DNA of 64,000 nt from a virus. Its lineage: Duplodnaviria; Heunggongvirae; Uroviricota; Caudoviricetes. Positions 583 through 57,898 of the stretch are shown here, in pieces. The translations under genes were made by a program, and so were the position numbers. How positions within the stretch are numbered: position 1 is the stretch's first letter; each line of letters opens with the position of its first letter. The stretch lies in IMG/VR virus record IMGVR_UViG_2675903278_000002, one strand, 5' to 3'. Below the pieces are notes generated by a model. It was not told the origin of the DNA. It did not search any database and was given only the letters and a program-made list of their open reading frames with translations.

Positions 583-699
583 TTTTTGATAGATAATAAG
601 TAAGTACTGATCTATCATCTAACAGCTCGAAAGAGCCACGAATGAACGAAAGCCCAACGCGCATAGCGCCATCGGCCAAATCACAACAAGGAGAAACAC

Positions 700-4106: not shown

Positions 4107-4167
4107 CTCTTGAAAATATATAAGTACTTACTTATTATTTTCGCATAACAACCACATAGGAAAACAC

Positions 4168-41747: not shown

Positions 41748-41890
41748 AGGGAAAAGGCTGCATCCCGCTACAGAAACGGCTGGGTTGCCTTCGGGGAACG
41801 GCTGGAGGTTTTCAGGGAAACGGTCGAGTTGCCTGTGTGGATTTCGGGAAAAGGCTCGATGCCGGTTCAGGAACGGTGGCGTACCGGTAT
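41748..41890. repeat. six direct repeats GG(G)AAA(A)CGGCT at ~21-22 bp periodicity
   Basis: units at ~41750, 41772, 41794, 41815, 41846, 41869; related array at 45775-45890. Confidence 0.65.
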
Positions 41891-45774: not shown

Positions 45775-45890
45775 GCCGCAGGGAAATTTTCAGAAACGGC
45801 GAGGAACGTATTCATAAGCCGACGGGAAACGGCCAGGATTTTTTCGGGAAACGGCTGCATTCGCCTTTATGTAGAAAAAAACATCGGGAA
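45775..45890. repeat. second array of GGGAAACGGC-type direct repeats
   Basis: units at ~45778, 45791, 45822, 45845, 45884, same family as 41748-41890. Confidence 0.6.
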
Positions 45891-49397: not shown

Positions 49398-50957
49398 CTA
49401 ATCTCGTTTCAGAACTCCAAAATCGAATGCTCCATCAATAGGCAATACACCTTCTGCAAAGCCAGGTGTGGTGTCGATGATGTGTTTTCGCTCATAAGAG
49501 TGAGACAACAGGTATTTGTTGCTAATGTCAATGAAATCAGTGATAAAACACACGTTTGCCTGATTTTTTTTGGCTCGTAAGCCACGACCGACACGCTGCC
49601 TCATTTCAACTTCTGCTTTTCCACCACCAGCCAGAATGACCGCACCAACGCTTGGCACATCAACACCGACATCCAGAATAGTCGAGCCTATTAAAACATC
49701 TATTTCGCCAGACGCTAAACTGTTCAGCTTTGCTTGCCTTGTCGCCTGGTTCGATTCCCCATAGATGAAGTCAACTTTAAGACCTGACTCCTTCATCATC
49801 TCCATCAGGATTTGCCCGTGGCGTTTAAGACGAACCAGAGTCATGCAATTGAGAGAATGTTGCTTATAGAGCAATGCTTCGCGCACAATGGCCTCGTTAC
49901 GTCCCAAATTATACACGATCCCCAACTGATAAGCCTTTTGGTAGGCTGTGCTCATACCTACTCTAAAATTAAGGTGTTTGTTGGCAAGTTCCGCCTTGAT
50001 TCTGACCTCGTCTGGCTTGTAAGCAACTTTATGATAAAGGAAGTACGGTTTTGCCAGAATGCCTCGATCAATCAGGTACTTTTCTGTGACTTTAATTTCA
50101 ATTCGACCGGCCACAGCCATCAGACGCATGTTGGCTTCTGTAGAATCCTTCATGAACGGCGTGGCCGTAAGCGCCAGACGATAGTCTGCGTTCACACATA
50201 ATCTGGCAATGTCATAGAAATTAGAGCCTGAAGACTCATGCGCTTCTTCCAGAATAAGCAGAGACACACTTGAAAGGAAGCGTTTCACCAACTCCCGACG
50301 TTTGAGGTGGTAGCTTTTCTTATCTGGTGTTGCATCGCGTGGTGGTTCTTCGAGGAAACTTGCAAGAGTTTGAACTGTAGCGACGTTGATATGTCGTGAT
50401 ACCTGGAACTCACCCGAGCCAATGACTCCAACCTTTTGGTCTTTTAACCACGGTTCGCCATTTTCGGCGCGGTAGTCGATGGATCTCTGGAAGTTTTCGG
50501 CCATTTGAAACATCAGAACAGAGCGGGTTGTTAAAAATAATGTCATTCGACCGATACGTGCAGCTGCTTTGCAGGCAACGTTAGATTTCCCGCCACCAGT
50601 AGCGATCTGCGCAATCATCATTCCCTCTCGAACCAGTGTTTCCACAGTCTGATCCTGATACGCATAATCAGGATTGTATGGGAATGGGTTAACCGCCGGA
50701 TTTGGTTTACCAAGCGCCGGGGCTTTGTCTTTGCGGATATGAACACATTTGATGCCCGCCTTGTTCAAGTTCGCCGCTACAGGCTTGGCAAAGCCAGCAG
50801 GGAACGAGTTTTTACTCCAGTTGAACATCGTGCTTGTGCCCTTCCAGTCGCCAGTCTCGACTTCGTAGCTCAACATTTGCTGCACCAGTTGCTTTACCTT
50901 GTCATCTGCGCCAGAAATAAGCGCATTTACTGCGTTAGATACAATCCGAACAGTCAT
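49398..50957 (-). CDS. superfamily 2 DNA helicase (UvsW-like by context)
   Basis: Walker A ATGGGKS, DEAH-type box LILEEAH, helicase C motif QRVGRGLR; 519 aa. Confidence 0.7.
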   Translation of the reverse strand: MTVRIVSNAVNALISGADDKVKQLVQQMLSYEVETGDWKGTSTMFNWSKNSFPAGFAKPVAANLNKAGIKCVHIRKDKAPALGKPNPAVNPFPYNPDYAYQDQTVETLVREGMMIAQIATGGGKSNVACKAAARIGRMTLFLTTRSVLMFQMAENFQRSIDYRAENGEPWLKDQKVGVIGSGEFQVSRHINVATVQTLASFLEEPPRDATPDKKSYHLKRRELVKRFLSSVSLLILEEAHESSGSNFYDIARLCVNADYRLALTATPFMKDSTEANMRLMAVAGRIEIKVTEKYLIDRGILAKPYFLYHKVAYKPDEVRIKAELANKHLNFRVGMSTAYQKAYQLGIVYNLGRNEAIVREALLYKQHSLNCMTLVRLKRHGQILMEMMKESGLKVDFIYGESNQATRQAKLNSLASGEIDVLIGSTILDVGVDVPSVGAVILAGGGKAEVEMRQRVGRGLRAKKNQANVCFITDFIDISNKYLLSHSYERKHIIDTTPGFAEGVLPIDGAFDFGVLKRD

Positions 50958-51039
50958 AAACCTCTTTCCTTAGTGCCTTTTGTATGTTATTTGGCTATTA
51001 TAATAAGTAAGTGATTACTTAGTGGATTGTAGCAATAAA

Positions 51040-51720
51040 ATGGATGTAAAAATCACGATTTTGCAGGTTGATGTTGCCAACCTTCGCCCGAATACCTGGA
51101 ACACCAATTCGGTTGGTGCGCAGAATTTTGAAAAACTGAAAGGTTCTATCGAAAAATTGGGCTTTTTTAAGCCAATTTTGGCTCGTGAACTTGAAGATGG
51201 ATTTTTTGAAATCCTCGGCGGTGAACATCGCTGGCGTGCTGCTATTGAGCAAGGAATTTCAACGGTTCCGGTGCTTTCTGTGGGCAAAATTAGCGATGTC
51301 GTAGCTAAACAGATGTCACTGGTGGACAACGAGCGATACGGTGAAGACGACCAAATCGCATTGCAACGCTTCATTGAAGAAATTCAGTCAGAACTTGACT
51401 ATCAACTGTCTGAAATCGCCCCGTATGACGACGAAATCTCGATGGTTTTAGCAAAAGAGGCGGCAATCGACCTTGAAGCACTGGAGGCGTTGTCTCGTGG
51501 TAGTGATGAGCCTGTCGATACCGACAAACGAGAGAAAACCGAACGTGTGGGTGCGGAACATCAGACCATGCGCTTCAAAGTAACTTTCGATGCGTCAGAT
51601 CGTGTTGCAGAAACCATAAAAAACATCATCAAAGAGCAGGCTATTAACACCGGTAATGAAATGGAGAACGCTGGTGAGGCTCTGGTGTGGCTGGTCGACT
51701 ACTACAAGGAGCGTATGTAA
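51040..51720 (+). CDS. ParB/Srx N-terminal-domain protein 1
   Basis: ParB-box-like ILGGEHRWRAA; acidic C-terminus; ORF track start 51022 overlaps a palindromic motif, ATG 51040 preferred. Confidence 0.65.
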   Translation: MDVKITILQVDVANLRPNTWNTNSVGAQNFEKLKGSIEKLGFFKPILARELEDGFFEILGGEHRWRAAIEQGISTVPVLSVGKISDVVAKQMSLVDNERYGEDDQIALQRFIEEIQSELDYQLSEIAPYDDEISMVLAKEAAIDLEALEALSRGSDEPVDTDKREKTERVGAEHQTMRFKVTFDASDRVAETIKNIIKEQAINTGNEMENAGEALVWLVDYYKERM

Positions 51721-52388
51721 TGACCAAAAAGTTTGAAATCGTATATCGCGACCCGGCAGATCTTATTCCCTATGAGATGAATGCCAAAAAGCATGATGAA
51801 CAGCAGATCAGAGATTTGGCCGCAGCCATTAAAAAGCGCGGATTTGACCAGCCAATTACGGTCGATAAGAACGACGTAATTATTACTGGCCACGGCCGCC
51901 GTGAGGCTGCAATTTTTGCTGGACTTGAGCGCGTACCGGTTATTGTTCGTGATGATCTGAGTGATGACGAGGTTCGTGCGAAGCGCCTTGAAGATAACCG
52001 ACTTGCCAGCATTGATTACGATGCAATTAAGCTACAGAAAGAGCTTGAGTCGCTTGTTCTGGACGATATTGAGGTTTTCGGCTTTGAAGAGCGTGAGTTG
52101 AATGTTCTCGTTGGCAGTATGACAGAAGAAATGGACACCGACTCGCTAGTTATCGATCTTGGCGAAGAAACTAAACGACAGAAGGATGAACACACCGAGA
52201 TCAGTCGTGAAGTTGCAGCGGAAGAAGTACGTGTTGTCGACGTATTGGGCTTTAAAACGCTCCCTGCTGGCTCTGCCATTGTTGTTGGTGATTTGCTTGC
52301 CCATATGGAAGAAATGACGGGAGAAAGCGGGGTAGACGCATTTGTGGCATATGCGGAGAAGATCTCTTCCGGGGAGATGGCTGCATGA
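51720..52388 (+). CDS. ParB/Srx N-terminal-domain protein 2
   Basis: ITGHGRREAA motif; ATG overlaps upstream stop (TAATG). Confidence 0.65.
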   Translation: MTKKFEIVYRDPADLIPYEMNAKKHDEQQIRDLAAAIKKRGFDQPITVDKNDVIITGHGRREAAIFAGLERVPVIVRDDLSDDEVRAKRLEDNRLASIDYDAIKLQKELESLVLDDIEVFGFEERELNVLVGSMTEEMDTDSLVIDLGEETKRQKDEHTEISREVAAEEVRVVDVLGFKTLPAGSAIVVGDLLAHMEEMTGESGVDAFVAYAEKISSGEMAA

Positions 52389-53050
52389 GCAAATACATCA
52401 TCAACGTATCGTTTCAGACACGCGTAAATAAAACCACGCGCACGTTGGAAATCGCTGAGTCGTTCGGGCTTGGCCTGGACGAAAAAGAGTGGACGCTTTA
52501 CGACAATCTGGAGCTGGAAGTGAAGCAGGGCGATGTGGTGTACATCACCGGCCAATCCGGTTCCGGCAAATCCGTTGTGCTGCGCGAGTTGCAACGACAG
52601 ATGAAGGATGAAGGGCTGTCTGTAGCCTCCATCGATGATTTTACCTTCGATAATGAGGTTAACGTCATCGATCAGTTGGGCAAAACGACCAGTGATGCGC
52701 TTGGGTTGTTATCTATGGCTGGTCTGAACGATGCATATCTGTTTGTTCGCAAGCCTTCTGAAATGTCAGACGGCCAGAAATATCGTCTCAAGATTGCCAA
52801 ACTGATTGAGTCAGGCGCTAAAGTATGGGCTGCTGACGAGTTCGGCGCTGTTCTCGACCGTGTAACCGCTCAGGTTGTGGCGTCTAACCTCCAGCGTGCC
52901 GCTCGAAAGGTTGGTGCGACGGTAATGGTGGCGACGACTCACGAAGACCTGAAGAACGCGCTGCGCCCTGATATGCAGATCACCAAGCACTACAAAGAAC
53001 GCGTGAAGGTGGAATATCACAATGGTAGTCATGATGAGGTCCATTCATGA
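52385..53050 (+). CDS. standalone ABC-type ATPase
   Basis: Walker A GQSGSGKS, ABC signature-like LSDGQKYRL, Walker B VWAADEFG, H-loop ATTHE; 221 aa, no transmembrane partner nearby. Confidence 0.55.
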   Translation: MSKYIINVSFQTRVNKTTRTLEIAESFGLGLDEKEWTLYDNLELEVKQGDVVYITGQSGSGKSVVLRELQRQMKDEGLSVASIDDFTFDNEVNVIDQLGKTTSDALGLLSMAGLNDAYLFVRKPSEMSDGQKYRLKIAKLIESGAKVWAADEFGAVLDRVTAQVVASNLQRAARKVGATVMVATTHEDLKNALRPDMQITKHYKERVKVEYHNGSHDEVHS

Positions 53051-53937
53051 CGGACATCATCATTAAACGCTACCGCCCTGAAGAGTTTCCGCGTCATCTG
53101 GACTTTCTGGAGCGAATGACTGTTACAAAGGGAACTGTAGAGGACTGGCACGCTCTTAAGTCGCTTCACTACAAAACAGACGGCAAACCTTTCGCGCCAA
53201 CTTACTATCGCTGCGAACTTGATGACCGTCTGGTGGGCGTCGTGGTTATGGCTTACCCGAAACTACTGTTGGCACCTCGCCACCGCATGTTTCCTAAGTT
53301 GAAACCAACCACTAATACCACCGTGGCTAACCAGTACTGGGGTCGGTACGTGAATAACAACTTTGCGGTGATCAGTCGCTCAGTTGTGGATACTCAGTAT
53401 CGTGGCGTAGGCGTCTCTTATAGAATGATTAACCTGGTTAGCAGGATGCATGACCGGCCAATCATTGAGATCCAGTCCTCGATGAGCAAATACAATCCCT
53501 TCGCCATGAAAGCAGGGTTTAAGTTCATCCGCCCTGAGCGACCGAAGAGCTATGAAAGTGCACTGCGTGTGTTCCAGCGCCATTTCCGCTCCGACCCGGG
53601 TGATAACGAGGCGATCGTCAAAGAGTTGTTCGCTATGAGCGAGTCTCGTCGTCGCCGTGCGCTGCGCGATTTGGTGGCGGACTACCATAAGAACAGTTCC
53701 CTGGCAAAAGCTGGGCGGAATCGTGGCACGACGATTCAGGACATTGCCGACAGTCTGGTGGACGAGGCCAGCATTGTGAAGCTGCTCAAGGACATTCACA
53801 ACCTGAGCTTTACGTCTCCGTTGTATGGTGTGTACCGAAACCCTGACTTTGGCCGTCGACTGCCTGACACGCTGCCACTGCTGGCATTCGACAAACAACC
53901 TTTGGATAAACCGTTAGAAATTGCTTTACCGGCATAA
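53047..53937 (+). CDS. hypothetical protein with GNAT acetyltransferase-like core
   Basis: GNAT motif-A-like QYRGVGVSYRMI; 296 aa. Confidence 0.35.
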   Translation: MTDIIIKRYRPEEFPRHLDFLERMTVTKGTVEDWHALKSLHYKTDGKPFAPTYYRCELDDRLVGVVVMAYPKLLLAPRHRMFPKLKPTTNTTVANQYWGRYVNNNFAVISRSVVDTQYRGVGVSYRMINLVSRMHDRPIIEIQSSMSKYNPFAMKAGFKFIRPERPKSYESALRVFQRHFRSDPGDNEAIVKELFAMSESRRRRALRDLVADYHKNSSLAKAGRNRGTTIQDIADSLVDEASIVKLLKDIHNLSFTSPLYGVYRNPDFGRRLPDTLPLLAFDKQPLDKPLEIALPA

Positions 53938-53946
53938 GGATTTGCC

Positions 53947-54213
53947 ATGACGTTAACCGACAAACAAAAGGACATCATCAAAACGCTCAATCTCGGTTAT
54001 GAGCGAGGTCATCTACTTGACCTGGACGAATTGCTTGAAGTTTTGCCGTACAAGACAACCAAGCAAAGTATCCAGTTCTCAATTCGCGCTCTGATAAAAA
54101 AGGGGCTGGTGGAGAAAGGGCATACGCGCCAACGCAGTGACAATCGCTATCACCGCCGGACTCTTGGGTTAACCACTTTAGGTCGAGCCAAAGCGAAGTT
54201 ACTGGTGATGTAA
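53947..54213 (+). CDS. small putative winged-helix DNA-binding protein
   Basis: 88 aa, basic, helix-turn-helix-like central segment. Confidence 0.35.
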   Translation: MTLTDKQKDIIKTLNLGYERGHLLDLDELLEVLPYKTTKQSIQFSIRALIKKGLVEKGHTRQRSDNRYHRRTLGLTTLGRAKAKLLVM

Positions 54214-54228
54214 TCGGTCTGGGAGCTT

Positions 54229-54300
54229 ATTTAAAGACCTGCATCTGTATATATAAATAATAAGTAACTTATTAAATATATACGGAAGCAGGCTTCGTAA
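54229..54300. promoter_or_regulatory. GC-clamped hairpin element with TATAAATA core (copy of the 24751-24809 element)
   Basis: CTGTATATATAAATAATAAGTAACTTATTAAATATATACGGAAGCAGGC; followed by two motif A copies (54328-54344, 54353-54370) upstream of TerS. Confidence 0.45.
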
Positions 54301-54408
54301 GACATGCCAGACCTAATTAAACACCCCAGAAAACAAGTTGGTTAGCAGATGCAGTAAACAAGTTGTTTTAGAGCGCATGGACGCGCTCTGTGTGTTTTAG
54401 AGGGATCT

Positions 54409-55041
54409 ATGACGGTCGAAAAAGACGAGGTAAAAACTCGCCTGACACCAGCGGAGTGGGCCGAAGCTGAAGCCAAATGGACGTCAGGCGAATATACACT
54501 CTCAAAGCTGGAGGAAGAGTACGGCATTCGTCGTGAAACACTCTCCAGACATTTCAAAAAGCGAGGATTAGAGAAAGGCGCGGACTCTGTTGGGAAGATG
54601 GTTCGTGAGTCTCTTAAATCTGACGCAGAGCTTCGCGCTAAAGCCCGTGCGGAAAAGATAGAAGAACGTCGTACACGTTATGACGGCTGGGCGTATGCGT
54701 TGGGGCAGATGGTGATGGTCGAAGTCACTACGGCCAAACGTGAGGGTAAGCCTTTAGGGGCGATTGAGGATTCTCTCAAGAGCTTACAGAGAGCCAGTAA
54801 TACCCTTGCAAAATGCTTTGAAGTTTCGTCCAAAGCATTGGGCATGGATCATGCGGAAAATGACGAGGAAGAAATTCCGAACCTGGTATTTGGTGAGCTT
54901 ACGCCTTCCCAGGTGGCGAAATTACGTCAGGAAGACGACGAGCCTGAAATCATCGATGACGAATTGCTTGAGACGTTGGAAGAAGAAGCTCTAAGCGAAT
55001 TTGATGCGACAGATGATGGAAGTGAAGGGGAGGACGAATAA
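54409..55041 (+). CDS. terminase small subunit (putative)
   Basis: 210 aa, N-terminal HTH-like region, acidic C-terminal tail, directly upstream of TerL. Confidence 0.55.
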   Translation: MTVEKDEVKTRLTPAEWAEAEAKWTSGEYTLSKLEEEYGIRRETLSRHFKKRGLEKGADSVGKMVRESLKSDAELRAKARAEKIEERRTRYDGWAYALGQMVMVEVTTAKREGKPLGAIEDSLKSLQRASNTLAKCFEVSSKALGMDHAENDEEEIPNLVFGELTPSQVAKLRQEDDEPEIIDDELLETLEEEALSEFDATDDGSEGEDE

Positions 55042-56297
55042 TGGCAATCCCGTCCTCGCTCAGTCTTGTGCAACTGCATTCTGGACAGATGAAAGTCTTC
55101 CAGTCTCCGCATCGATTTAAAGTTGTTTGTGCTGGTCGACGCTGGGGAAAATCCCGGTTGTCGATCTCCACTATTATTCGTGCGGCGGCAAAGGAAAAAA
55201 AGCAAAGAGTCTGGTATGTCGCTCCTACTTACCAGATGGCTCGCCAGATTTTGTGGGACGATCTACAGGAAGTTCTGCCTCGTAAGTGGGTTAGGAAAAA
55301 GAACGACACCACGATGACAATCGTGTTGAAGAACGGTTCGGAGATCGCCCTCAAAGGTGCTGATAAGCCTGACACTCTGCGCGGCGTAGCGTTGCATTTT
55401 GTAGTGCTTGATGAATTTCAGGATATGAAGGCTGACACCTGGTACAAGGTGTTACGACCTACTCTTTCATCGACACGCGGCGGTGCACTGATCATTGGTA
55501 CGCCAAAAGGCTTCTCGGAATTTCACAAACTGTGGACTATAGGCCAGAACGTAGAGCTGCAAACAAAGGGACAGTGGAAGAGCTGGCAGTTTGTAACTGC
55601 CGATTCTCCGTTTGTACCTACGGCGGAAATTGAAGCTGCTAAGAACGATATGGACCCGAAATCGTTCGCTCAGGAGTACCTGGCGAGCTTTGAGAACATG
55701 TCCGGGCGCGTTTACTACCCGTTCGATCGTAACGTGCATGTAAAACCGCTTCAGTTCAACCCTCGGTTGCCTATATGGGTAGGGCAGGACTTCAACATTG
55801 ACCCGATGTCTTCAGTAATTTTGCAACCTCAGCCAAATGGTGAGCTATGGGCAATTGATGAATTGGTGCTCTTTTCCTCTAACACGGCAGAGGTTTGTGA
55901 TGAGCTTGAGAGACGCTTCTGGCGCTGGAAATCACAGATAACGGTATTTCCAGATCCGGCAGGTGCTTATCGCCAACATGCTCGCGGGGAGTCTGACGTC
56001 GACATATTCAAAGAGAAGGGATTCTTACGTGTCGATTATTCGAAAAAGCACCCGCCAATTGCGGATCGTGTTAATGCTGTTAACCGAATGCTGATGACCG
56101 CATCTGGAGATATCCGGCTGTATATCGATCCGAAGTGCAAGCATTTGATTGATTCACTGGAAAAAGTCATCTACAAGCCTGGAACACGAGATATGGATAA
56201 GACAGGTGGCATTGAGCATAGTGCAGACGCATTGGGCTATCCAGTACATCGTAGGTATCCAGTCAAAAACCGTGTTATTCTTGGTGGTTCTCGATAG
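55041..56297 (+). CDS. terminase large subunit
   Basis: Walker A VVCAGRRWGKS, Walker B-like VVLDEFQD, C-terminal nuclease-type region; 418 aa. Confidence 0.8.
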   Translation: MAIPSSLSLVQLHSGQMKVFQSPHRFKVVCAGRRWGKSRLSISTIIRAAAKEKKQRVWYVAPTYQMARQILWDDLQEVLPRKWVRKKNDTTMTIVLKNGSEIALKGADKPDTLRGVALHFVVLDEFQDMKADTWYKVLRPTLSSTRGGALIIGTPKGFSEFHKLWTIGQNVELQTKGQWKSWQFVTADSPFVPTAEIEAAKNDMDPKSFAQEYLASFENMSGRVYYPFDRNVHVKPLQFNPRLPIWVGQDFNIDPMSSVILQPQPNGELWAIDELVLFSSNTAEVCDELERRFWRWKSQITVFPDPAGAYRQHARGESDVDIFKEKGFLRVDYSKKHPPIADRVNAVNRMLMTASGDIRLYIDPKCKHLIDSLEKVIYKPGTRDMDKTGGIEHSADALGYPVHRRYPVKNRVILGGSR

Positions 56298-56323
56298 GTA
56301 AGTAATTATCTAAGGTTATTCAA

Positions 56324-57898
56324 ATGGAATTGAACGACAAACAAATTAAGGATCTGGTGGCGCGACGCCACCCGGAATACGAAAAGAAAAAAGAACATTG
56401 GGACTTCCTCGCCAGCACTTACGCTGGCGGGCGTGGTTGGTTTACAGACAATATCTTTCGTTACTTTAAAGAGGGAGATCAGGAGTTTAAGGAGCGAGTT
56501 GAACGTGCTTATCGCTTCAACCACACTCGTGAGGTGGTAAACCTCATCAACAAATATCTCTTTAAAGAAGACATTCATAGAAATATCGAAGAGGCACCAG
56601 AGCAGATCCGCAATTTCTGGAAACGTGCGACTCGCCAGAATGCCTCTATTGACTCATTTATGGCCGCTATTGATTTGCAGTCGTCTATTTACGGTCGCAT
56701 ATGGGTTGTTGTCGATAGCACGATGAGTGGTGATGTTGAGTCAGTAGCTGACGAGAAAAAGAAAGATGCTCGCGCCTACGCCTACTGGATTTCACCTCAG
56801 CAAATGCTGGATGTGGCATGGGACGACGACGGGAATATGTTGTGGGCGTTAATTGTGGAAGTCGCTCGTGATGACGCAGATCCTTTTACTTCTACAGGTC
56901 AGGAATACCAACGTTATCGTCTGTGGACACAAAACGAGTGGTATCTGTTCCGTGAGGAAGTGAAGAAGGGCGCTGGTGGAGCAGGTCGCCGTCAGGCAAA
57001 AGTTATTTTAGAGGATAGCGGTGAGCATAATCTCGGCGTAGTTCCTGTGTTTCCTGTTGATTGTATTGGAGAAAGTGAATCACCGTATTTCAGCCCATCG
57101 TTGATCGATGATATCGCTTATCTTGATCGTGCGGTTGCAAACTATCTGTCAAACCTTGATGCCATTATTCAGGATCAGACATTTAGCCAGTTGGCTATAC
57201 CGGTACAGTCGCTTTTACCTGGTGATGAAAACCACACTAAAGTGCTTGAAATGGGCACAAAGCGAGTATTCACCTACGATTCTGAAGGTGGAAACCAGCC
57301 GTTTTATCTGTCACCAGACCCGAAACAAGCTCAGATGATCATCACTACGATTAAGACGGTGATTAACGAAATCTACCATTCAGTTGGTGTAGCTGGTGAG
57401 CGAACGAAGCAGGACAACGCACAGGGAATCGATAATTCATCTGGTGCCGCAAAAATGTATGACTTCCAGCGTGTAAATAGCTTGCTTGTCACAAAAGCAG
57501 AGCGTCTGGAAAGGGCTGAACGCCAAATCATGCTACTGGTTGCGAAATGGATGGGGGTAGATCTGGACGAAGACCACTCTTTAATTGCGTATCCAGAAAG
57601 TTTCGATATTCGTGGCCTTACTGATGAATTTTCTGTTGCCGAGAAACTGTCATTACTTCAGGCACCGGACTCTGTACGTCGTCACCAGATGGAAATGCTT
57701 ATTGAGAAGATTTTCCCGAACATTACTGAGGCGATGAAAAAGGAATTTGATAAAGATCTCTTGAATTTTCCTCCAAAAAATGATCTAAATACCCTTGAAA
57801 ATAAGTCAGTACTTACTTATGATCGTGGTGCAGCCCAAGAAAGCGGGCAAGATCAACCCCGAGGGAATGGGGACTCATCTACTCAAGAGAACGAGTGA
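56324..57898 (+). CDS. portal protein (putative)
   Basis: 524 aa, position between TerL and scaffold/capsid genes. Confidence 0.6.
   Translation: MELNDKQIKDLVARRHPEYEKKKEHWDFLASTYAGGRGWFTDNIFRYFKEGDQEFKERVERAYRFNHTREVVNLINKYLFKEDIHRNIEEAPEQIRNFWKRATRQNASIDSFMAAIDLQSSIYGRIWVVVDSTMSGDVESVADEKKKDARAYAYWISPQQMLDVAWDDDGNMLWALIVEVARDDADPFTSTGQEYQRYRLWTQNEWYLFREEVKKGAGGAGRRQAKVILEDSGEHNLGVVPVFPVDCIGESESPYFSPSLIDDIAYLDRAVANYLSNLDAIIQDQTFSQLAIPVQSLLPGDENHTKVLEMGTKRVFTYDSEGGNQPFYLSPDPKQAQMIITTIKTVINEIYHSVGVAGERTKQDNAQGIDNSSGAAKMYDFQRVNSLLVTKAERLERAERQIMLLVAKWMGVDLDEDHSLIAYPESFDIRGLTDEFSVAEKLSLLQAPDSVRRHQMEMLIEKIFPNITEAMKKEFDKDLLNFPPKNDLNTLENKSVLTYDRGAAQESGQDQPRGNGDSSTQENE

Follow-up and report, generated by a model that had tools for sequence, protein, structure and literature searches.

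A stretch of 64,000 nucleotides of viral DNA (Caudoviricetes; IMG/VR record IMGVR_UViG_2675903278_000002), referred to below as the window, was analysed around a module of five genes on its + strand (positions 51040-54213), which encode two ParB-like proteins (ParB1 and ParB2), an ATP-binding cassette (ABC) ATPase, a GNAT-fold protein and a small basic winged-helix-like protein. Comparative evidence argues strongly that this module is a widespread, misannotated virus gene set for one multi-part enzyme tied to DNA maturation, and the ATPase and GNAT genes can be identified from their homologues as the two halves of one split ABC–GNAT enzyme. The reading preferred here, to which a probability of about 0.4 is given, is that the module is a ParB-activated, ATP-driven acyltransferase that would act on phage DNA before packaging, its five genes together specifying one nucleoprotein enzyme machine of the phage DNA-maturation stage. 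The window is an SSU5-type phage-plasmid; its 3.2-kb module region shares 99.1% identity with Escherichia phage Cyrano, 85% with Salmonella phage SSU5 and 99.8% with IncFIB-typed plasmids of E. coli and E. albertii. Matching plasmids in PLSDB number 772 and come from Klebsiella, Escherichia, Enterobacter, Yersinia and Salmonella. The five genes are as follows.

51040-51720, + strand: ParB1, with a ParB/Srx (ParB-CTPase-fold) N-domain, followed by a flexible acidic linker and a C-terminal domain that is small and helical; alternative GTG start at 51022.
51720-52388, + strand: ParB2, a second, more divergent ParB/Srx-fold protein with a GHGRR motif and a very acidic C-terminal half.
52385-53050, + strand: soluble ABC-type ATPase (ABC_tran), nucleotide-binding domain only, equivalent to the N-terminal half of fused ABC–GNAT proteins.
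53047-53937, + strand: GNAT-fold acyltransferase-like protein, isoelectric point (pI) 9.8, with a conserved C-terminal extension, equivalent to the C-terminal half of fused ABC–GNAT proteins.
53947-54213, + strand: small basic protein of 88 residues, pI 10.2, phrog_900 (1.9e-45).

All five open reading frames of the preliminary description, which was made from the sequence alone, are present and coupled as it had stated. The ParB1 stop and ParB2 start share the sequence TAATG (1-nt overlap at 51720), ATGA overlaps join ParB2 to the ATPase (52385-52388) and the ATPase to the GNAT gene (53047-53050), and a 9-nt spacer with AAGGA precedes the small basic protein gene. The GTG start at 51022 that had been assigned to ParB1 gives way to ATG 51040, which is used by both GenBank and RefSeq and is the probable start. 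Each module protein belongs to a separate phage family in PHROGs (723, 930, 293, 886 and 900, in gene order). The RefSeq labels along the module are 'ParB N-terminal domain-containing', 'ParB/Srx family', 'ATP-binding cassette domain-containing' and two 'hypothetical', followed by a further hypothetical protein, the terminase large subunit (TerL) and the portal.

The ATPase can be assigned to the ABC superfamily as a true nucleotide-binding domain on the basis of its profile score and motifs. Pfam ABC_tran matched with an E-value of 5.8e-13 (50.1 bits against a cut-off of 25), nucleotide-binding domains were matched in the PDB, and Walker A (GQSGSGKS), signature (MSDGQKYRL), Walker B (VWAADE) and H-loop (TTH) motifs are all present; the Walker and H-loop motifs had been reported correctly before, and the signature had been misread as LSDGQKYRL. 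The earlier observation that the ATPase has no membrane partner also holds, since no 19-residue Kyte-Doolittle hydropathy window exceeds 1.5 in any of the five module proteins. None exceeds 1.6 when the flanking products checked are included, so that no candidate ABC-transporter permease was found among them, and the annotated neighbours of the module are a helicase and a terminase. The GNAT protein, a putative acyltransferase, has the GNAT fold with an R/Q-x-x-G-x-G/A loop for the coenzyme A (CoA) pyrophosphate, is basic in both halves, has no Pfam match, and has Mom among its top structural matches. In databases its gene (53047-53937) is misleadingly called 'ABC transporter ATP-binding subunit'.

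The preliminary description had overlooked the relation between these two genes, which emerges from their homologues. A profile search with the GNAT-like family against 1.8 billion representative proteins produced 899 matches, most of which, beyond close relatives of 290-310 residues, are 450-500 residues long and carry the GNAT-like part at about residues 200-480. Pfam ABC_tran was found N-terminal to the GNAT-like region in 10 of the 10 long homologues examined. The archaeal fusion P0184 (Nitrososphaerota) aligned over residues 19-229 with the window ATPase (41% identity, E-value 7e-51) and over residues 222-385 with the window GNAT protein (29% identity, E-value 2e-19). Because both halves are homologous to this single archaeal protein in the same order, the order of the overlapping genes being that of the domains in the fusion, the two genes are identified as the halves of one split ABC–GNAT enzyme (fusions of about 480 residues, COG2401/MK0520-type). 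The fused form is found in hundreds of homologues and is sometimes extended by a ParB domain or a DNA polymerase B: a ParB-like N-domain stands ahead of ABC–GNAT in four representative proteins (P0196, P0222, P0227 and P0228), the triple fusion P0227 showing the ParB motif DGEQR, and a family-B DNA polymerase (PolB) is N-terminal in the PolB–ABC–GNAT fusions P0206 and P0182. IMG and the Cyrano record name the fused form 'ABC-type ATPase fused to a predicted acetyltransferase domain', a label that the Cyrano record attaches to the GNAT gene. In the literature searched, no paper was found on the fused ABC–GNAT family or on the five-gene module, though an existing classification of ABC ATPases may already cover the clade.

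Both ParB-like proteins scored above the gathering cut-off of 26.3 bits for Pfam ParB_N (PF02195), ParB1 with 49.9 bits (3.3e-13) and ParB2 with 35.0 bits (1.5e-08). The GxxR phosphate-binding motif and the (D/E)N..R motif downstream of it, GGEHR and DNER in ParB1 and GHGRR and DNR in ParB2, place them in the ParB/Srx superfamily, in agreement with the earlier recognition of two tandem ParB/Srx proteins from the sequences GGEHRWRAA and GHGRREAA, both of which are present. ParB1 belongs to phrog_723 (2e-79) and matched Spo0J, ParB and Noc in the PDB. Its homologue search was dominated by Klebsiella variants at least 86% identical and was therefore rerun with the Ectothiorhodospira orthologue; the NTP-motif residues G60, G61, R64, D96, N97 and R99 are invariant across 40 homologues. 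In the AlphaFold2 model of ParB1 the predicted local distance difference test score is above 90 for residues 1-100, below 50 for residues 140-172 and about 90 for the C-terminal domain, and Foldseek matched the model to ParB bound to CDP or CTP (1.9e-08). A confident helix-turn-helix (HTH) is absent from this model, in which residues 105-172 are of low confidence or disordered, and the Pfam scan found no HTH domain in ParB1 or ParB2. The two proteins are acidic (pI 4.55 and 4.53, respectively), with C-terminal halves at pI 4.1-4.3 (4.09 in ParB2). ParB2, which is 33% identical to ParB1 over 116 residues, belongs to phrog_930 (1.2e-112), and its next-best matches are the ParB domains of ParB–methyltransferase fusions (phrog_498, 5.3e-32; PADLOC MTase_II, 2.7e-17). 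The nucleotide specificity of ParB-fold proteins is not predictable from sequence (PMC12704722).

Several database names in this family are misleading. ParB2 orthologues are called 'DNA methyltransferase' in the phages nickie (L247 4322-5014) and RHEph10 (L248 3677-4339); this label is a transfer error. Homologues of ParB1 are named 'chromosome partitioning protein ParB', and many RefSeq homologues appear as 'ParB/RepB/Spo0J family partition protein'.

These names, together with the adjacency of two ParB_N proteins to an ATPase on a low-copy phage-plasmid, would fit an atypical partition module for the plasmid prophage state, in which ParB1 and ParB2 would be centromere binders and the ABC ATPase the motor, a role also put forward in the preliminary description. 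Such a function is very unlikely, to the point of being negligible. It is disfavoured because the module also occurs in phages isolated by plaque and, 3 kb from the flagellar genes motA/motB/fliM, in a chromosomal contig of 3.27 Mb, because a near-identical plasmid has its own ParA elsewhere, and because the ParBs are acidic and without a confident DNA-binding domain. In addition, the ATPase is an ABC domain and not a ParA, the ParA-contact motif LG(K/R)GL is absent from both ParB1 and ParB2, in line with the earlier statement that this is not a canonical ParA/ParB pair, and the relatives of the module are archaeal and Planctomycetota virus genes beside TerL. The plasmid pAVS0223-B, 99.8% identical in the module region, encodes RepA and, about 30 kb off and outside the window, a ParA-family ATPase of 222 residues (MipZ/AAA_31/CbiA; L004:30915-31942), directly downstream of which lies a gene for 117 residues without a Pfam match. 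This pair is likely to be the true partition locus (type Ib-like) of this phage-plasmid family.

The small basic protein is probably a winged helix of the MarR/Lrs14 kind. It had been described as a small winged-helix-like protein, and it is indeed small, and basic; the winged helix-turn-helix (wHTH) assignment draws on weak matches to PADLOC CARF-wHTH (4.5e-05), to Sta1/Lrs14 (0.0025-0.004) and to MarR ST1710 (0.087, with a typical recognition-helix and wing pattern). It has no Pfam match. The protein is conserved only in the bacterial lineage of 100-120-kb siphoviruses, with orthologues at the same position in loci L005 and L006 and in nickie and RHEph10.

Under the preferred reading, ParB1 and ParB2 would act as a nucleoside triphosphate (NTP)-gated adaptor by which the enzyme is activated or placed on double-stranded DNA. 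The mechanical step that brings the basic GNAT domains to the substrate would come from dimerisation of the ABC domains, driven by ATP, and the GNAT domains would transfer an acyl group from an acyl-CoA-type donor to phage DNA, as a post-replicative base modification made shortly before packaging; a protein bound to phage DNA would be a less likely acceptor. The small winged-helix protein would tether the complex to DNA or regulate the adjacent terminase operon. We infer activation by ParB, delivery of GNAT by ATP-dependent dimerisation, and DNA as the acceptor. Phage ParB homologues without a DNA-binding domain have been shown experimentally to activate post-replicative thymine dioxygenases on double-stranded DNA (PMC13229309), the GNAT enzyme PaMx11 gp48 acetylates a base within polymeric DNA (PMC8989533), and hypermodification clusters co-occur with amidoligase genes (PMC8989533). 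Late acyl modification before packaging is favoured because of the layout of ParB1, the relatives of ParB2, the precedents for DNA-modifying GNAT enzymes, the basic GNAT protein and the accessory distribution of the module. A wider form of the proposal, in which ParB–ABC–GNAT would be an ancient, unrecognised machine of bacterial and archaeal tailed viruses that uses ATP, and in bacteria also a ParB NTP switch, to acylate DNA maturing for packaging, is doubtful.

The distribution of the enzyme ties it to viral DNA handling. More than 546 IMG/VR stretches encode the ABC–GNAT family, and the fused form is abundant in archaeal and Planctomycetota (pro)viruses. A scan of IMG/VR with the SSU5-type alignment gave only near-identical loci, and the fused-family alignment was used for diversity. 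Among the 80 best-scoring IMG/VR loci of the fused family, 56 have TerL directly upstream in the same orientation, 44 of them with an overlap or a gap of at most 10 nt, and 64 have it within 5 kb. TerL was also directly upstream in 20 of 31 GTDB archaeal loci (Bathyarchaeia, Nitrososphaeria and Thermoproteota), where Pfam confirmed Terminase_6N/6C, and several archaeal loci have a YqbQ-like tail-related protein upstream. One ABC–GNAT gene lies between RecJ-like and DnaE genes, and another locus is near a Prim-Pol helicase, RecA and an SMC-like ATPase. By gene neighbourhood, then, the ABC–GNAT unit is linked in genomes to the DNA-handling genes of viruses, and to TerL most of all. In 19 of 34 bacterial loci, mostly of Planctomycetota, ABC–GNAT has a ParB_N gene no more than 1 kb away (Pfam ParB_N in three spot checks), in the order ABC-GNAT-ParB-TerL, which is recurrent in Planctomycetota, or ParB-ABC-GNAT; judged from these arrangements, ParB-fold proteins are regular partners of ABC–GNAT in bacteria.

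The five-gene form was found in plaque-isolated phages, namely Pseudomonas nickie and relatives, Rhizobium RHEph10 and relatives, Stenotrophomonas ANB28, BUCTxx99 and Xanthomonas JGB6, all of which have genomes of 105-122 kb. In an Ectothiorhodospira contig the full module is accompanied by the divergent helicase as well as by TerS-like, TerL and portal genes. Among 894 phage records in which a related TerL occurs, the module was found in only 31-33; phages without it include some at a TerL identity of 41% (Vibrio 1.082.O) and of 35%. Because so few of the records with a related TerL possess it, the module can be classed as accessory, and not essential, for this terminase family.

The same synteny offers an alternative in which no base is modified: a terminase accessory or packaging-initiation complex, in which ParB–ABC–GNAT would bind TerL, the TerS-like protein or DNA near the packaging start and would mark viral DNA, clear bound proteins or regulate the terminase, for example by acetylating terminase, portal or nucleoid proteins. 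This is unlikely, though it shares with the packaging role suggested in the preliminary description a solid observation, that of TerL synteny in viruses of both Bacteria and Archaea, and phages of E. coli, Rhizobium and Pseudomonas all keep the gene order module–TerS–TerL–portal. In its favour are also the motif ATAATAAGTAA common to the module and the terminase operon (see below), and the 23 of the 80 IMG/VR viral contigs that end directly after the ABC–GNAT gene. The linear records of Cyrano (OV696614.1) and SSU5 (JQ965645.1/NC_018843.1) end 62 bp past the wHTH gene, at about window position 54275, inside a palindromic region; these record and contig ends may mark a genome terminus or only a deposit convention. 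Against a terminase accessory stand the TerL relatives without the module, up to 41% identity, and the ParBs, acidic and without a confident DNA-binding domain, which weaken the idea of packaging-site recognition by ParB. In other lineages the gene is fused to PolB or belongs to replication modules that lie a long way from terminase genes. Homology of the ParB-like proteins to a terminase small subunit, which had been named beforehand as a finding that would overturn the earlier proposals, was not found: the PHROG matches of ParB1 and ParB2 are all to ParB, nuclease or methyltransferase families, and a separate TerS-like gene exists.

The patchy occurrence among TerL relatives would equally fit an accessory function in an arms race, in which the module would be a protein (or RNA) acetyltransferase for host takeover or anti-defence, directed at a host factor (a nucleoid or defence protein, say, or aminoacyl-tRNA), while ParB would sense NTP and regulate the enzyme. 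ParB-fold domains are indeed common in phage conflict proteins (PMC5512222, PMC12704722). We consider this improbable: the genes belong to the conserved core of a whole siphovirus lineage and occur in hundreds of archaeal viruses with very different hosts, which argues against a host-specific target, their fusion partners and neighbours are the DNA enzymes PolB, TerL, DnaE and RecJ, and no PADLOC or anti-defence family was matched.

Several points weigh against acylation of phage DNA itself. The likeness of the GNAT protein to known enzymes is at the level of the fold only, and protein, tRNA and small-molecule acetyltransferases score equal to Mom. To our knowledge, no DNA modification has been described for SSU5-type phages. 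The tight TerL–ABC–GNAT coupling in archaeal viruses fits a direct partner of the terminase equally well, and the low-confidence helices in the ParB1 model (residues 105-152) could be a degenerate DNA-binding region. No ParB gene adjoins ABC–GNAT in archaeal loci (0/36 and 0/80); an adjacent ParB being usually missing there, ParB is not universally needed. The IMG/VR and GTDB locus sets consist of best-scoring matches that are not phylogenetically independent, and the TerL and ParB hidden Markov models were iterated on the same loci, which inflates their E-values; the TerL and ParB assignments are nevertheless backed by first-round phmmer searches from the window proteins (1e-9 to 1e-14) and by Pfam spot checks.

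Comparison with known systems places the module near, and outside, several of them. It resembles the 5mYOX–ParB pairs, in which ParB is needed for the action of the dioxygenase on double-stranded DNA (PMC13229309): as in these, ParB1 is modelled as an NTP-binding N-domain plus a C-terminal domain, without an obvious DNA-binding domain, and its gene lies beside that of an enzyme. It differs from them in that the partner is an ABC-ATPase/GNAT enzyme and not a Fe/2-oxoglutarate dioxygenase, there are two paralogous ParBs, and the system is known here from genes and models. ParB2 matches the N-terminal ParB domain of the ParB–DNA methyltransferase fusions (phrog_498; PADLOC MTase_II PDLC03229), and the ParB–ABC–GNAT triple fusions share with these an architecture in which a ParB domain is placed ahead of an enzyme; unlike them, the module has no methyltransferase domain. 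Both halves of the COG2401/MK0520-type fusion are homologous to the module proteins in the same domain order, whereas in the window two overlapping genes encode the enzyme, and two ParBs and the wHTH protein go with it. With ParABS the module shares a ParB1 N-domain close to canonical ParB/Noc, in which GGEHRWRAA parallels GERRxRAA, but its operon includes no ParA, the ParBs carry neither a ParA-contact motif nor a confident HTH, their C-terminal part is not basic, and a separate ParA locus is present on the plasmid. In contrast to Mu Mom (8bv8), PaMx11 gp48 and TmcA/NAT10, the GNAT protein shows no sequence-level relationship to these enzymes, and the ATPase is ABC-type, not helicase-type.

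The closest parallel among defence systems is Menshen NsnABC (PMC12065111), in which a ParB-fold protein (NsnA), an ABC ATPase (NsnB) and an effector (NsnC) are likewise encoded in one operon. A prophage defence or superinfection-exclusion system with the same logic, having ParB as sensor, the ABC ATPase as transducer and an effector, would be consistent with this architecture and with weak PADLOC matches of the ATPase to the mad3 and mad8 ATPases (1.8e-13 and 1.2e-08), and only a slim chance is assigned to it. Menshen is a host defence and the module a virus core gene set, conserved in the structural/late region of plaque-isolated phages beside TerL and not in a variable island. The parts proper to Menshen, a ParB-DUF262 protein with ParBDB, an OLD-type AAA_15 ATPase with DUF3696 and an inPIN with nuclease, have no counterpart in the module: PADLOC gave no Nsn match for the module proteins, the Pfam families are ParB_N and not DUF262, and ABC_tran and not AAA_15, and there is no nuclease effector. 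For the Dnd, Ssp and Dpd systems, only a marginal PADLOC DndF match of the ATPase (0.0022) was obtained; no Dnd or Ssp model was matched otherwise, and no DndACDE, SspABCD or DpdA is annotated nearby. The earlier statement that no defence system could be recognised is in line with the PADLOC scan, which returned no specific system, and with NCBIfam, which returned no equivalog. The nuclease/NTPase defence or anti-defence role suggested in the preliminary description is neither favoured nor refuted by these results.

ParB-fold proteins are increasingly seen as general NTP switches beyond chromosome segregation, and the module would add a partner type, the ABC ATPase plus GNAT, that is backed by natural fusions. 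The family is large, is carried among others by clinically common Klebsiella and E. coli phage-plasmids and by Yersinia plasmids, and is labelled 'ABC transporter' or 'partition protein' in databases. If the module does modify DNA, its enzymology would be new among the ways in which phages modify their DNA and might account for how SSU5-type phage-plasmids evade restriction; an acylation machine would establish a new class of DNA-modifying enzymes and give both ABC ATPases and the ParB-CTPase fold a role not seen before. If it assists the terminase, it would be a new packaging cofactor common to bacterial and archaeal viruses. Either way, the module genes should not count as plasmid partition genes when phage-plasmids are classified.

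As described previously, the module is located upstream of the terminase genes, and a helicase gene diverges from it on the other side. The flanking features are as follows.

49398-50957, - strand: UvsW/DEAD-box-like superfamily 2 helicase (Pfam ResIII, DEAD and Helicase_C; phrog_16), divergent from the module.
50958-51039, intergenic: divergent intergenic region with the promoter-like motif ATAATAAGTAA at 51000-51010, upstream of ParB1.
54214-54408, intergenic: AT-rich region between the module and the terminase operon, with an inverted repeat, ATAATAAGTAA, direct repeats and a hairpin.
54238-54254 and 54276-54292: inverted repeat CCTGCATCTGTATATAT / ATATATACGGAAGCAGG, enclosing the AT-rich ATAATAAGTAA motif at 54257.
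54327 and 54352: direct repeats CAGnAAACAAGTTG in the 54214-54408 region.
54369-54390: GC-rich hairpin just 5' of the TerS-like start.
54409-55041, + strand: TerS-like DNA-binding protein (phrog_867, 2.2e-100).
55041-56297, + strand: TerL (Terminase_6N/6C).
56324-57898, + strand: portal (phrog_2; RefSeq annotation of pAVS0223-B).
54409-57898, + strand: context block of TerS-like, TerL and portal genes (PHROGs, Pfam and RefSeq of pAVS0223-B).

The TerS-like and TerL genes overlap as TAATG, and the Pfam scan gave no match for the TerS-like protein. The divergent helicase flanks the module also in L005, L006, phage nickie and RHEph10; from this synteny it can be regarded as a conserved neighbour, and as a candidate functional part at most.

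Exactly four copies of the 11-mer ATAATAAGTAA were found in the window, at 593-603 (+), 4128-4138 (-), 51000-51010 (+) and 54257-54267 (+), all of them intergenic and in a promoter-like position. When one mismatch was allowed, 6 sites were found against 0.88 expected, a number reached in 0 of 100 shuffles. The copies that precede ParB1 and the TerS-like gene suggest a shared class of phage promoter or operator for the module and the terminase operon. Locus L073, which is 90% related, retains the outer stem of the inverted repeat, CCTGC(A/T)TC...GGAAGCAGG, and in the consensus of relatives a T-run comes after the inverted repeat; the element at 54238-54292 may serve as a terminator or an operator, or may belong to the packaging start. 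Apart from the promoter-like motifs, no repeat array was detected inside or beside the module. The repeat arrays that the preliminary description had placed at 41750 and 45780 were not recovered by Tandem Repeats Finder, and these gene-poor positions contain only loose direct repeats, GGGAAAAGGCT...GGAACGG three times at 41749-41876 and GAAACGGCGAGGA twice at 45793-45838 (45793 and 45826), which nothing ties to the module.

Some candidate fusions were set aside. The apparent GNAT–TerL and ParB–GNAT fusions P0004, P0027, P0031 and P0049 are 97-99% identical to E. coli sequences and look like deletion or assembly variants. Fusions of 880 residues (P0192 type), in which the N-terminal 400 residues resemble by eye a P-loop NTPase plus a PD-(D/E)xK nuclease, gave only sub-threshold Pfam scores (KAP, Pox_A32 0.007) and were not used. 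An archaeal TerL adjoining ABC–GNAT (L089:6601-7935) passed the Pfam threshold for the NAT10/TmcA helicase (27.5 against 22.7 bits); this match probably reflects general P-loop similarity and was left unused, though it is a curious parallel to the ATPase-plus-GNAT RNA acetyltransferases.

Among individual members of the family, P0165 contains an intein with a LAGLIDADG domain inside its ABC domain, and the ABC–GNAT fusion P0154 (Nitrososphaerota) ends in a C-terminal TFIIB repeat. In two IMG/VR isolate genomes an Amidoligase_2 gene (PF12224; L180:3645-4517, 2.8e-49, and L240:11537-12400, 8.8e-60) lies directly downstream of ABC–GNAT and is followed by TerL and portal; upstream in L240 there is also a ParA-like gene in divergent orientation. 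A related plasmid carries host-like apbC (iron-sulfur carrier) and metG (methionyl-tRNA ligase) genes at L002:4972-8263, which would correspond roughly to 36.0-39.3 kb of the window.

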